Assembly: GCF_009931435.1 (NCBI RefSeq) | Contig: NZ_CP043414.1 | Origin: Escherichia coli | GTDB taxonomy: Bacteria; Pseudomonadota; Gammaproteobacteria; Enterobacterales; Enterobacteriaceae | DNA length: 64,000 bases | Reading direction: 5' to 3' (one strand) | Shown: positions 33,801 through 39,800 of the stretch, piece after piece | How positions within the stretch are numbered: position 1 is the first letter of the stretch | How the letters are laid out: each line of letters begins with the position of its first letter | Position numbers: made by a program

Positions 33801-36800
33801 ATGCCTTAGCCTTAGCTGGAACGCTGAAAAATCCAACCCCGGCGCTAACCGTTTTTATCAGGCTCTGGGAGGCAGAATAAATGATCATATCGTCAATTAT
33901 TACCTCCACGGGGAGAGCCTGAGCAAACTGGCCTCAGGCATTTGAGAAGCACACGGTCACACTGCTTCCGGTAGTCAATAAACCGGTAAACCAGCAATAG
34001 ACATAAGCGGCTATTTAACGACCCTGCCCTGAACCGACGACCGGGTCGAATTTGCTTTCGAATTTCTGCCATTCATCCGCTTATTATCACTTATTCAGGC
34101 GTAGCAACCAGGCGTTTAAGGGCACCAATAACTGCCTTAAAAAAATTACGCCCCGCCCTGCCACTCATCGCAGTACTGTTGTAATTCATTAAGCATTCTG
34201 CCGACATGGAAGCCATCACAAACGGCATGATGAACCTGAATCGCCAGCGGCATCAGCACCTTGTCGCCTTGCGTATAATATTTGCCCATGGTGAAAACGG
34301 GGGCGAAGAAGTTGTCCATATTGGCCACGTTTAAATCAAAACTGGTGAAACTCACCCAGGGATTGGCTGAGACGAAAAACATATTCTCAATAAACCCTTT
34401 AGGGAAATAGGCCAGGTTTTCACCGTAACACGCCACATCTTGCGAATATATGTGTAGAAACTGCCGGAAATCGTCGTGGTATTCACTCCAGAGCGATGAA
34501 AACGTTTCAGTTTGCTCATGGAAAACGGTGTAACAAGGGTGAACACTATCCCATATCACCAGCTCACCGTCTTTCATTGCCATACGGAATTCCGGATGAG
34601 CATTCATCAGGCGGGCAAGAATGTGAATAAAGGCCGGATAAAACTTGTGCTTATTTTTCTTTACGGTCTTTAAAAAGGCCGTAATATCCAGCTGAACGGT
34701 CTGGTTATAGGTACATTGAGCAACTGACTGAAATGCCTCAAAATGTTCTTTACGATGCCATTGGGATATATCAACGGTGGTATATCCAGTGATTTTTTTC
34801 TCCATTTTAGCTTCCTTAGCTCCTGAAAATCTCGATAACTCAAAAAATACGCCCGGTAGTGATCTTATTTCATTATGGTGAAAGTTGGAACCTCTTACGT
34901 GCCGATCAACGTCTCATTTTCGCCAAAAGTTGGCCCAGGGCTTCCCGGTATCAACAGGGACACCAGGATTTATTTATTCTGCGAAGTGATCTTCCGTCAC
35001 AGGTATTTATTCGGCGCAAAGTGCGTCGGGTGATGCTGCCAACTTACTGATTTAGTGTATGATGGTGTTTTTGAGGTGCTCCAGTGGCTTCTGTTTCTAT
35101 CAGCTGTCCCTCCTGTTCAGCTACTGACGGGGTGGTGCGTAACGGCAAAAGCACCGCCGGACATCAGCGCTATCTCTGCTCTCACTGCCGTAAAACATGG
35201 CAACTGCAGTTCACTTACACCGCTTCTCAACCCGGTACGCACCAGAAAATCATTGATATGGCCATGAATGGCGTTGGATGCCGGGCAACCGCCCGCATTA
35301 TGGGCGTTGGCCTCAACACGATTTTCCGCCATTTAAAAAACTCAGGCCGCAGTCGGTAACCTCGCGCATACAGCCGGGCAGTGACGTCATCGTCTGCGCG
35401 GAAATGGACGAACAGTGGGGCTATGTCGGGGCTAAATCGCGCCAGCGCTGGCTGTTTTACGCGTATGACAGGCTCCGGAAGACGGTTGTTGCGCACGTAT
35501 TCGGTGAACGCACTATGGCGACGCTGGGGCGTCTTATGAGCCTGCTGTCACCCTTTGACGTGGTGATATGGATGACGGATGGCTGGCCGCTGTATGAATC
35601 CCGCCTGAAGGGAAAGCTGCACGTAATCAGCAAGCGATATACGCAGCGAATTGAGCGGCATAACCTGAATCTGAGGCAGCACCTGGCACGGCTGGGACGG
35701 AAGTCGCTGTCGTTTTCAAAATCGGTGGAGCTGCATGACAAAGTCACCGGGCATTATCTGAACATAAAACACTATCAATAAGTTAGAGTCATTACCGGCA
35801 GAGGAAATCCGGTTTTTTTTGATGTCAGCCATAACGTGTTTGACAATAAAGCATTATGAAAGGGTGTTAATGAGTCCATGGGATAATTCATAAAAATAAT
35901 TTACTGTGTTGTCCTTTTCAAAAGAAATATTCAGAAGATAACCCCTGGCTGACAACCAGGGAAAGGGGACATTAACAGTATTATTATTGGTGGATAAATT
36001 ATTACTTGTGTGCAGGATACACTAATGCAATATCTACTGATGCTGTATGCCAGAATGTTTCCTGCCTGCTGCTGAAAACGGCAATATCCAGGGCCAGACA
36101 TATTCACCATTCATATTTCTGCATTTCTGTACAATTTTCTCAGAAAGCGTCTCATCAATTCTTTCACGCAACTTCTCCTGCTGTCTTAAAATACTTTCGT
36201 ATATTTCGAAATCATCTTCCTGCATCAGCATTTCGGCGCATTTAATGATTTCTGCCCGTTCATGCAGCACAGAGGAATGGTTATAGAGCCAGTTTACAAA
36301 CAGCAATGCTTCCGGATATTGTCCCCATAATGGTGAGTATGTTGTATAATAATCTTCGGCAGTATCCGGCCCTGCAGAATAGTTATGCCATACAGCAAGA
36401 GGAAATGGATGCAGATTTCCGCACAGCATTTCCGCGATGTAAGTATTTGCCGCAAATCCGCGACGAAATGCAGTTGCAGCTTTTACCAGTTCCCCATTAA
36501 GAAAATGCAGAAGACCAAGTTCATACCAGTAAGGTGAAAATTCATCAGCATGTTTTTTCAGTACACTGAAGGCTCGCTCATGATCACCTGTTCGTAACAG
36601 TTCTGAACCCAACAACCAGCGGGCACCCTGATTATCTTCAGGATTGTATGCCAGTATTTTATCAGTAAGCATAACCGCATCCTGATGACGCTGTAAGTGC
36701 ACATTTGCGAGAATTGCTGCATAAAGCGCGCGCAGATAAGGCCGGTTTTCGGGATGCATCCAGATGATTTCACCACTGAAACTTTCCGGGATGAGACGAT

Positions 36801-39800
36801 TACCGGCCGCCAGTCCTTTAAGCGCGGCGTTCAGAGCCTTACGCGGGGCATTCTGCTCCAGAAATGCATATGCCAGATGAGCGTGTATATCAATAAAGTC
36901 AGGCTCCCGTTGAGCAAGATGCCTGAGTTTGTTGATGTAACTCGTCTCGCTGATTTCATCAGTGTCGTATGCATCAAGCACTTCTTCAAACTCCCCCAGT
37001 AATGGGCCAAACCAGGTATCCGGAAATACGAAATAACCCTTGTTATCGTGCACTTCAAAGCATAATCTATCGTTCATTTTCTGAGCCTGTAAAACATGTG
37101 GTGATATAGTCTGAGAGCATAAAAGTTGAGATTCTGTGTATCAAGTCCTGTCTTGGCACCGAATGAATATTGCTTACGAAGCCCCTTCATGCTTTCCTTG
37201 AGAACAATAATTTTATCTTTATGTGAATCTCATTTTTTATAATGATGTCAGATGATTGAAATGCTAAATTATATCTGAATCAACTTTTCCTTTGCTAAAG
37301 GTATCGAAATAACTGCAAGGTTGTATTTTGTAATTGCCAATTTAAAAATGTCAATTTGTTTTTAATTATGTTTTTGTAATAAGTTTGAAGACACAAAAAA
37401 ATAATATAATAACAAAAATCCTCCAGCCTTGTAGGCCGGAGGATAAAATACTTAATTGAGGAAAACATCAGGGAAAAGTATTTCTGACTTAACTTTCCCG
37501 GCTGGAGAGTGAATCAATGTAATCAGCGTACCATTGCATCATTTCACGGCGGCCATCGAGATACAGGGCATGATTATAGGTACCCCTGATGGAATTTTTA
37601 TCCACATGAGCTAACTGCATTTCAATCCAGGCGGAGTTAAAGCCTTGTTCATGCAGAATTGTACTCATGGTGTGTCTGAAACCGTGCCCTGTGAGTCTTC
37701 CCTTATATCCAAGTAATTCAATTACTTGGTTAATGCTTTCCTTACTAATTGGTTTGCGGGGATCATTTCTACCGATAAAGACTAGGGGATGATGTTTTGA
37801 GATTGGTTCAAGCTGCTTAAATAGCATAATAACCTGCTCAGAGAGCGGCACAATATGAGGTCGCTTCATCTTCATTACTTCTGCCGGGATCTCCCACAAT
37901 TTTGTCTCAAAATCGATATCTTCCCAGCGTGCAAAACGCAGTTCTTGTGTTCGTACGCCGGTTAACATAATGATCTGAGTAGCTGTCTTAGTGATTATAC
38001 TTCCGGTATAACCCGCCAGATCGTTGAGGAAGTGGGGAAGTTCATTAGCAGTAAGAAAGGGAAAATGTACTTTTTTCGGTGTAGCTAAAGCACTGGCAAG
38101 ATCGGGGGCTGGGTTATAGTCTGCCCGGCCAGTAACAATTGCATAGCGGAACACCTCACCACAGCGCTGGCGGACCTTGCGCATTTTCTCCAGAGCTCCA
38201 CGTTTTTCCATTTTACGCAGTGCTTCCAGTAACTCCATTGGTTTGATTTCGGCAATAGGGCGCTTGCCAATGTAGGGAAAAATGTCTTTTTCAAAGGTAT
38301 CAATGATTTCATCACGATAGCGTAATGACCACCGATCGGCTTTTGACTGGTGCCATTCGCGAGTAATAGCCTCGAACGTATTTTTCAGACTTATTTGCTG
38401 CGCGATTTTTTCTTCCTTTTTTGCCTCCCCTGGATCGCCTCCAGCAGCGAGGAGTTTCCTGGCTTCACTGCGTTTCTCGCGAGCATCGGCTAGCGTTACA
38501 TCGGGGTATACGCCAATAGAAAGCATCTTTTCTTTACCAGCAAAGCGGTACTTCATGCGCCAGTATTTAGAACCATTAGTGTTAATCAGTAGATACATAC
38601 CGCCGCCATCAGCAAGCTTATAGGGTTTGTCTTTGGGTTTTGCGGTTTTCACTTTGATATCGGTTAATGCCATGACATCCTCCGGCTTTTGATGAATTCA
38701 TGTTCCTGAGGGGGATTTCTGCCAGTAACTAACCTGATACCCCCAATACACCCCTTGTATAACAAAGATGTTGTTAAAAGCCGTTGTTATGTATCACATT
38801 TTTCCTATTATGGGGGTGCTTGTATTTCAATAGGAAATAACACCCCCTAAAGTACCCCCAAAAGAAACTTGATACGGGGTGAAGTAGGTTGACCTCAGGA
38901 TACAAATAAATACTGATATACAAGGGATTAGAAGAGATTTATTGACATTGGGAGAGTTCAGAAGAGGTAAACTGGCGGAAGATCACAGGAGTCGAACCTG
39001 CCCGGGACCGCTGGCGGCCCCAACTGGATTTGAAGTCCAGCCGCCTCACCGGAGACGACGATCTTCCGCGCCTCGATTGCTACATGGAGGCGGGGCGCAT
39101 TATAGCTACTTCCTTGAGTTTCTACATCCCCCAGATCAGTTTTTTCCGCCTAATACATGCAGCGTATTATCACGAAAGCATTATATTTCATATAAAACCC
39201 ATATTTTACAATGATATATGAGCGTAATTTACGCTACCACGATCACATAAAACAAGAATCATAAATTAATAACCAGATATCGGAATATTCGCTCTCACAG
39301 GGATGGTTTACAAAATGCGTTATCGGTCTCAGCACCCCTATAGCATCAAGGAAAAGCAGATGAAGAGTGAAGTGTTGTCCGTTAAAGAGAAAATTGGTTA
39401 TGGCATGGGAGACGCCGCCAGCCACATTATTTTCGATAACGTAATGTTATATATGATGTTCTTTTATACCGATATTTTTGGCATTCCTGCCGGATTTGTC
39501 GGAACCATGTTTTTGGTCGCTCGTGCACTGGATGCAATTTCTGATCCTTGCATGGGGTTGTTGGCCGATCGAACGCGCTCTCGCTGGGGTAAATTTCGTC
39601 CATGGGTACTGTTTGGCGCACTGCCATTCGGGATCGTCTGTGTACTGGCCTATAGCACGCCAGATCTCAGTATGAACGGAAAAATGATTTATGCAGCAAT
39701 TACTTACACCCTACTTACCTTACTTTATACCGTCGTCAATATCCCTTACTGCGCATTGGGTGGTGTAATCACCAATGACCCGACTCAGCGTATCTCGCTG

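Follow-up and report, generated by a model that had tools for sequence, protein, structure and literature searches.

The gene at 36034–37077 (minus strand) in a 64,000-nucleotide stretch of Escherichia coli contig NZ_CP043414.1 (assembly GCF_009931435.1), hereafter the window, is judged from its sequence to be an intact allele of the shiA/sisB type, a gene already known and named in the pathogenicity islands of Shigella and E. coli. It belongs to the backbone of the island integrated at selC rather than to the cargo of this island. We propose that its product, ShiA, is a non-enzymatic protein that binds a partner, that this partner is more likely bacterial than of the host, and that the inflammation phenotype of ShiA is indirect. 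We hold this reading at slightly better than even odds (about 0.55).

What is new here is the existence of distant ShiA relatives on mobile elements across Proteobacteria. The finding in the window itself, a common and named accessory gene left intact beside a resistance transposon, matters little and carries no novelty. A gene that is widely scored as a virulence marker turns out to be the constant partner of an island integrase. Because of this partnership, and because the family is found on mobile elements of non-pathogenic bacteria, the case for a dedicated virulence factor is weakened.

Identity and island position of the gene

The open reading frame (ORF) starts with ATG and encodes 347 amino acids (aa; 40.2 kDa, pI 5.4). 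The identical protein is present on 894 public contigs, its homologues form 203 clusters at 50% identity (E <= 1e-30), and the ratio of nonsynonymous to synonymous substitution rates (dN/dS) is 0.11–0.26 in pairwise comparisons among E. coli and Shigella alleles. The ORF is thus not a chance frame, and the dN/dS values place shiA under purifying selection. An initial annotation of the window had proposed a real and intact gene here, and in this it was right. Diversifying selection had been suggested by 88.5% nucleotide versus 86% protein identity and is ruled out by the same dN/dS values.

Protein P0089 of S. flexneri aligns with the window protein without gaps over 347 aa at 93% identity (26 aa differences), and the window protein and S. 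flexneri ShiA fall into one common 90% cluster. On a complete S. flexneri chromosome the gene order is yicI/yicJ, integrase, P0089, insertion sequence (IS) elements and a major facilitator superfamily gene, which is the SHI-2 position. In SHI-2, a selC island, the first gene past the integrase is shiA, and another selC island has its first 2877 bp, shiA included, in common with SHI-2 (PMC6174562). The cluster that UniRef calls ‘ShiA-like protein’, of the pheV type, is just 86% identical to the window protein, so that the window allele is nearer to ShiA/SisB than to SisA. The sisA-forward and sisB-reverse primers published by Lloyd match 36836–36855 without mismatch and 36564–36589 with two mismatches; they span 292 bp in the window, which is the published amplicon size (primers from PMC3256949). 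The ‘ShiA-like protein’ of E. coli B also has 347 aa (PMC3256949), and some 14 nonsynonymous changes set the E. coli B allele apart from P0089, consistent with the published 97% (PMC3256949). Furthermore, a 1044-bp gene named ‘tetratricopeptide repeat protein’ by PGAP has been equated with sisA of the adhesion and autoaggregation locus (LAA), and this sisA homologue has as neighbours a gene for a phosphoethanolamine (PEtN) transferase and one for an outer-membrane beta-barrel protein equated with Hes (PMC13340028).

The gene can therefore no longer be called uncharacterised. It is shiA of SHI-2 and sisA-sisB of uropathogenic E. coli (UPEC) and LAA module I, for which suppression of inflammation in animal models has been published (PMC6174562, PMC7545054, PMC13340028, PMC3256949).

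Of 5426 complete E. coli genomes, 1978 carry genes of the shiA type, with up to five copies per genome; the laboratory strain BLR(DE3) is among them. All 12 sampled chromosomal copies share the order tRNA gene (selC, pheV or pheU), integrase, shiA; a PEtN transferase gene, or what is left of one, often comes next. The cargo past shiA varies: aerobactin genes in SHI-2, pap in ST131, sugar utilisation genes in E. coli B, leoA, and type I restriction-modification. Since the first three positions are constant in 12 of 12 copies while the genes beyond them differ, shiA is part of the island backbone, and the earlier designation as integrase-proximal cargo does not fit. With the P4-type integrase it makes up the constant end on the tRNA side in a group of E. 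coli and Shigella islands (SHI-2, LAA module I and PAI-pheV types). No sampled copy of the island lacks the gene.

The integrase gene (37489–38673, minus strand) encodes a P4-type tyrosine integrase with the domains Arm-DNA-bind_3, Phage_int_M and Phage_integrase and with 99% identity to the SHI-2 integrase. The integration site of the island is the gene for tRNA-Sec, selC (38973–39067, minus strand; ARAGORN). The idea of a P4-like satellite has to be given up, as the integrase alone is of P4 type: besides it, no P4 genes (primase, psu, delta, sid, cos) are found in the uninterrupted island of strain 97-3250. This insertion-free island starts with selC, int, the tetratricopeptide repeat (TPR) gene, the convergent PEtN transferase gene, an outer-membrane protein gene and genes for hypothetical proteins; further on lie an integrase fragment, an AAA ATPase gene and type I restriction-modification.

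In the interval that runs from the integrase to the outer IS1 end at 35796, shiA is the sole intact non-mobile gene, exactly as first annotated. The only further frame there (35797–35891) is what the IS1 insertion has left of a 76-aa frame, namely its initial 32 codons. RefSeq annotates the full frame as a hypothetical protein in other strains; it coincides with the 3' end, or with what remains, of the convergent PEtN transferase gene and is probably no gene. We also considered it as the peptide gene of a Rap-Phr-like module and rejected this, because it overlaps the PEtN transferase 3' end or remnant and is cut by IS1.

Predicted fold and resemblance to TCF25/Rqc1

The only above-threshold Pfam match of the window protein is ANAPC3 (29.7 bits versus a cut-off of 27.2). 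Several TPR models match below threshold over residues 129–212, NCBIfam yields TPR-type matches only, all sub-threshold, and 38 of 42 homologues match TPR_2. An AlphaFold2 model calculated from a 42-sequence alignment (mean predicted local distance difference test score 93.2, predicted TM-score 0.88) contains a beta-hairpin at residues 6–17, a 17-helix solenoid and a small C-terminal hairpin. In the fold search TPR proteins dominate the matches, and the best structural neighbour is TCF25/Rqc1. The helical-repeat nature of the protein, noted at the outset, is borne out by the ANAPC3 match, the sub-threshold TPR models and the all-alpha model. The same is true of the stated lack of a catalytic motif: no catalytic family is matched in Pfam, NCBIfam, PADLOC or PHROGs. 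Since the solenoid has no enzymatic domain, ShiA is expected to work by protein binding.

Across the 42 homologues, with identity down to 31%, 22 columns are invariant. Many of them lie in two non-TPR loops, IPExFxGxIxW..NRPYLR (residues 96–116) and CGNxxPxPLxxWH (residues 219–231), and further ones in an NPxDNQGxR turn. The protein is predicted to be soluble and cytoplasmic. Its grand average of hydropathy is -0.37, the Kyte-Doolittle maximum is 0.79 (19-residue window), and no transmembrane segment, hydrophobic segment or signal-like N-terminus is found in its 347 aa. A review likewise lists ShiA among predicted cytoplasmic proteins (PMC7545054).

Two other assignments were discarded. The older annotation of ShiA as a quinone reductase or NADPH oxidoreductase (PMC6174562, PMC7545054), or as a transporter, is unsupported by Pfam, NCBIfam and the fold search. 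The match to the type III secretion chaperone SctY (NF052415, 25.9 bits versus a cut-off of 70) reflects generic TPR similarity.

The resemblance of ShiA to TCF25/Rqc1 is real. The Pfam family Tcf25 (PF04910, DUF654) has a gathering threshold of 24.2 bits, which is exceeded by seven distant relatives found with the ShiA profile: P0154 (26.7 bits), P0174 (26.3), P0189 (28.4), P0190 (30.3), P0191 (27.0), P0192 (36.6) and P0337 (51.7). The Tcf25 matches of the distant members share one collinear register. Two of the seven, P0154 and P0174, are members of the family over their full length (E 1e-121 and 1e-103 with its profile), and P0192 aligns with the ShiA profile at an hhalign probability of 98.9% (E 1.3e-17, 247 columns). 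Eight ordinary multi-TPR proteins run alongside had no Tcf25 match; the signal is therefore not mere TPR-likeness. The window protein itself has no Tcf25 match that reaches the threshold. By its model it would have the fold of the Rqc1 C-terminal domain. Searches of PDB sequences with the family profile and with P0192 returned generic or designed TPRs only and no Rqc1.

The C-terminal domain of Rqc1 binds the Ltn1 RING domain and ubiquitin (PMC12215860), and TCF25 orients the acceptor ubiquitin (PMC12047659). One may speculate that ShiA, SisA and SisB form a large, hitherto unlinked and mobile-element-borne prokaryotic branch of TCF25/Rqc1, in which pathogen alleles would dampen inflammation through ubiquitin or RING binding and the bacterial ones would bind a ubiquitin-like or other partner by the same surface. 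We regard this as a long shot. If true, it would provide a testable mechanism for the 25-year-old ShiA phenotype and the first bacterial relatives of TCF25. The TCF25/Rqc1 link turns the question of ShiA and inflammation into concrete binding experiments. Both this link and the recombinase-coupled relatives described below are leads, not established results.

Some family members depart from the single-domain layout. P0337, mentioned above for its Tcf25 score of 51.7 bits, is a tandem protein. Among P0334, P0197 and P0199, one carries an N-terminal PRiA4_ORF3 domain and two carry C-terminal SEC-C motifs. P0192, which has the second-strongest Tcf25 score tested, directly follows XisH and XisI on a short metagenomic contig (L038, 196–1810). 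The family-search matches of 450–650 aa were also considered as eukaryotic TCF25. This was rejected, since Pfam shows them to be mostly multi-TPR proteins without Tcf25, together with one tandem Tcf25-like protein and one PRiA4_ORF3 fusion.

Relatives on mobile elements and the function of ShiA

Homologues of ShiA occur in Massilia, Rubrivivax, Vitreoscilla, Janthinobacterium, Sinorhizobium and Aeromonas and on plasmids of P. amygdali, always in mobile-element or island contexts. Five Tn3-family elements, from Klebsiella, Morganella, Serratia, Edwardsiella and P. amygdali, carry a ShiA-like gene just upstream of tnpR (L016, 6001–7577; L008, 3325–4901; L018, 6001–7577; L019, 6001–7493; L020, 6001–7577). 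In all five the stop codon of the ShiA-like gene overlaps the tnpR start. An intact tnpA lies on the other flank in three of them, divergent in Klebsiella and Morganella and in the same orientation in Serratia. The arrangement is kept between enterobacterial and Pseudomonas elements at 60% identity of the ShiA-like proteins and 78% identity of TnpR.

In Rubrivivax and AAP65, a DUF3701-type integrase of 703–765 aa is followed after a gap of about 60 bp by a ShiA-like gene and then by a gene for a 382-aa AAA_22 ATPase. The pair of ShiA-like and AAA_22 genes is present in three loci, namely two Burkholderiales islands (L027, 3749–8176; L028, 1340–5958) and a conjugative element (L009, 8001–10327); the integrase precedes it in the first two and not in the third. 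In the Rubrivivax island (L027) the module is followed by type I restriction-modification. A Vitreoscilla conjugative element (L004) has a ShiA-like gene between the TraD-DtrJ and TraL-TraC transfer genes, an interval which we take to resemble a variable region of SXT/R391-type elements.

Type I restriction-modification adjoins ShiA-like genes in Massilia (L003), in Rubrivivax and in the selC island of the window. Other neighbours are Wadjet JetABCD (L042), AbiEii, HicB and DUF4411/M78 (L040), PIN-MazE (L041 and L009), HicAB together with type VI secretion system (T6SS) effector-immunity genes (L014), an OLD-like AAA_15/21 ATPase (L030), and CcdAB with an anti-restriction gene (L016). As a separate observation, GGDEF or GGDEF-EAL genes adjoin ShiA-like genes in four unrelated loci, one of them an E. 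coli IncF plasmid (L017, 7424–8764; L029, 7305–9554; L031, 7082–8890; L013, 10697–12319). This adjacency may be due to chance, given the abundance of such genes in these genomes.

We propose that ShiA would be a compact alpha-solenoid with small beta-hairpin caps and no enzymatic domain, which would bind another protein through its conserved surfaces. The loops 96–116 and 219–231 and the NPxDNQGxR turn are candidate binding sites. ShiA would do its work within the bacterium, as an adaptor or regulator in the service of the mobile element or its host cell, and the effect on inflammation would follow downstream instead of being a direct effector activity. A bacterial partner is the more likely one, because there is no sign of export and the family is not confined to bacteria of animal hosts.

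Several points weigh against this proposal. The published experimental phenotypes are all host responses, so ShiA may have a direct host target. As Shigella lives in the cytosol and UPEC partly inside cells, ShiA may also be released by lysis. Several homologue contexts have no recombinase nearby, and the histories of int and shiA differ in E. coli, which argues against a tight integrase-specific partnership.

The neighbours listed above bear on a more specific role, in which the ShiA family would act in conflicts between mobile elements, phages and host defence. The most plausible form of this would be an anti-defence or regulatory binder, because this is a solitary gene whose product lacks an effector domain. 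The recurrent restriction-modification, Wadjet, AbiEii, toxin-antitoxin, T6SS and anti-restriction neighbours favour such a role, as do the position between the Vitreoscilla transfer genes and the ShiA-like/AAA_22 pair in three loci; in some lineages the ShiA-like protein could serve as the sensor in a two-gene system together with the 382-aa ATPase. However, proximity to defence and toxin-antitoxin genes is confounded by residence on mobile elements. A cellular role also agrees better than anti-defence at the time of entry with the long-term purifying selection seen in chromosomal islands that are largely immobile. The defence models of PADLOC-DB 2.0 give no match (best DrmC, E 0.036, 11.7 bits), PHROGs give no phage-family match, tblastn finds no copy in 50,697 phage records, and the BFVD viral fold search returns generic giant-virus TPRs only. 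We consider a conflict role unlikely, and the lack of an effector domain speaks against a self-sufficient defence gene. The expectation that genes at this position are often defence or regulatory genes may still hold for shiA: its product matches no known defence family in PADLOC, but its distant homologues do lie in mobile-element, toxin-antitoxin and defence-island contexts.

A further possibility is that ShiA is an accessory factor of the site-specific recombinase of its element, in integration, excision or resolution. The family is co-oriented with and adjacent to three unrelated recombinase types, which are the P4-type integrases of E. coli (12 of 12), the DUF3701-type integrases of Rubrivivax and AAP65, and the Tn3-family serine resolvases, with the stop/start overlap in five loci; in addition, one distant homologue follows XisH-XisI. 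Against this, many homologues have no recombinase within several kb, and the integrase-adjacent spot is the usual entry point for cargo. The E. coli islands provide two more objections, from their transcription signals and from their allele histories. We hold a recombinase factor to be rather improbable.

The first objection is a strong terminator and a separate promoter-like site between int and shiA. The spacer (37078–37488, minus strand) has 411 bp, is AT-rich (31% GC) and is nearly identical among selC islands. A terminator-like hairpin with a 12-bp stem and a T-run lies directly past the integrase gene (37418–37444, minus strand), so that int and shiA appear as two transcription units. 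The selC copies of BLR(DE3) and S. flexneri keep this hairpin; its stem differs by a single base (C/T). A consensus scan places a promoter-like site, TTGATA-17-TATGCT (9/12 matches), at 37116–37144 on the minus strand, 39 nt upstream of the shiA start. About 100 bp upstream of the ATG, with this site inside, can be aligned between selC and pheV islands; the remaining spacer has diverged. Another terminator-like hairpin lies 3' of shiA (35942–35962, minus strand). In the alleles of enterotoxigenic E. coli and S. flexneri its stem has paired changes, CCCTGG..CCAGGG versus CCCAGG..CCTGGG. From these signals we infer that shiA is transcribed alone, from the predicted promoter in the AT-rich spacer to its own hairpin terminator. 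Its expression has been followed elsewhere: shiA is induced anaerobically and independently of FNR in S. flexneri M90T (PMC4229854), and sisA is expressed in 6 of 8 urines of women with urinary tract infection (PMC2978726).

The second objection is that int and shiA do not co-evolve. The selC integrases are near-identical (dS about 0.012), whereas the adjoining shiA alleles differ by a dS of 0.24–0.31 and are mosaic (window versus L023, L035 and L037), which amounts to a roughly 25-fold difference in dS. Recombination breakpoints fall inside shiA. The mosaicism suggests exchange among paralogous copies, and the breakpoints may stem from gene conversion between the copies, of which a genome can have up to five.

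The least favoured alternative is a host-directed immunomodulator. In this case ShiA would reach the host cytosol by lysis or an unrecognised route, bind ubiquitin and/or a RING ligase as the C-terminal domain of TCF25/Rqc1 does, and, by skewing the signalling through ubiquitin chains, dampen inflammation of the NF-kB type. It would account for the fact that fewer polymorphonuclear leukocytes and T cells are recruited and for the stronger inflammation with mutants (PMC7545054, PMC4229854, PMC13340028). It would also agree with the seven relatives above the Tcf25 threshold, with the tie of P0192 to the ShiA profile, and with the binding of the Ltn1 RING and ubiquitin by the Rqc1/TCF25 domain (PMC12215860, PMC12047659). 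On the other side, the gene is equally frequent in enteroaggregative E. coli from cases (35%) and controls (36%; PMC3256949). The family resides on mobile elements of soil and water bacteria that have no animal host and is present in E. coli B. The window protein stays below the Tcf25 threshold, has no signal peptide, and begins with a structured beta-hairpin instead of a disordered secretion signal. To our knowledge, UPEC CFT073 has no injectisome. A host-directed ShiA is hence very doubtful, and the reading of ShiA as a binder of a bacterial partner is preferred.

Neighbouring features and comparison with known systems

Beside shiA the window island is interrupted by a composite resistance transposon of 26.1 kb (9649–35796, plus strand), bounded by direct IS1 copies at 9649–10416 and 35029–35796. 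Its limits were set by blastn against the uninterrupted island of strain 97-3250 (L002), and a 9-bp target duplication, GGCAGAGGA, is present at 9640–9648 and 35797–35805. The insertion point lies in the 360-bp convergent spacer between the PEtN transferase gene and shiA, 229 bp past the shiA stop and past the terminator-like hairpin, and both genes are intact despite the transposon. Judged by its ORF pattern and by matches to annotated records, the transposon appears to carry a Tn3/blaTEM-type segment, mer, tni, IS1326, a class 1 integron, Tn21-type tnpR/tnpA and catA1. The catA1, Tn21-type tnpR/tnpA, integron and mer parts are as in a related IS1-bounded element of E. coli 042, which is located at glmS-pstS and not at selC. 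Because of this other location, the IS1-bounded transposon has moved as a unit.

Past the transposon, the island module continues on the plus strand (7084–9517) with an outer-membrane beta-barrel gene (7084–7830) and the PEtN transferase gene (8015–9517). The beta-barrel gene has the same position as the one equated with Hes (PMC13340028), and the order of the two genes is the same in strains FORC 064 and 97-3250. At 3296–5814, right behind hsdS in the type I restriction-modification system of the island, an ORF of 313 aa overlaps a gene for an AAA_15/AAA_21 ATPase of 540 aa. The ATPase matches the PADLOC models PDC-M55A (1.4e-40), NsnB (3e-37) and AriA (5.5e-22), and the two genes look like a putative PARIS/Nsn-like defence pair inside the restriction-modification operon.

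Compared with TCF25/Rqc1 of eukaryotic ribosome-associated quality control, ShiA is likewise a non-enzymatic TPR-like domain for which a binding role is predicted. Unlike Rqc1, it has no long basic N-terminal region of the kind by which Rqc1 is anchored on the 60S subunit, and the bacterium has neither Listerin nor ubiquitin. The RRNPP regulators (RapI of ICEBs1, pLS20 Rap, PlcR) are mobile-element TPR solenoids as well, and PlcR, RapI, RapH and pLS20 Rap are among the fold-search matches. In contrast to them, ShiA has no helix-turn-helix domain (Pfam) and no N-terminal three-helix bundle, its N-terminus being a beta-hairpin. The RRNPP hosts are Firmicutes whereas the ShiA hosts are Proteobacteria, and no conserved gene for a small secreted peptide lies beside shiA.

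A 2020 study by Lima-Mendez et al. is said to describe toxin-antitoxin modules within the transposition modules of Tn3-family elements. The ShiA-like genes in L008, L016 and L018–L020 are similar to these modules in that a gene without a part in transposition lies between tnpA and tnpR and would be co-transcribed with the latter. They differ in being a single gene for a 340-aa TPR-like protein and not a pair, and they are distant relatives (50–58% identity), distinct from shiA of the window.

The closest comparisons are within the family. S. flexneri SHI-2 ShiA shares with the window protein its length of 347 aa, 93% identity, the integrase-adjacent position at selC, the same integrase (99%) and the same spacer. 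The window allele is different in being mosaic, with a middle part that resembles the alleles of pheV islands, and the islands differ as well: SHI-2 has the aerobactin genes, while the window island has PEtN transferase, beta-barrel and type I restriction-modification genes and the resistance transposon. SisA and SisB of UPEC CFT073 and SisA of LAA module I belong to the same family and have the same length, with the primer match and the 292-bp span in common. To be noted, the LAA module I order of int, sisA, PEtN transferase and hes is that of the window island minus its transposon.

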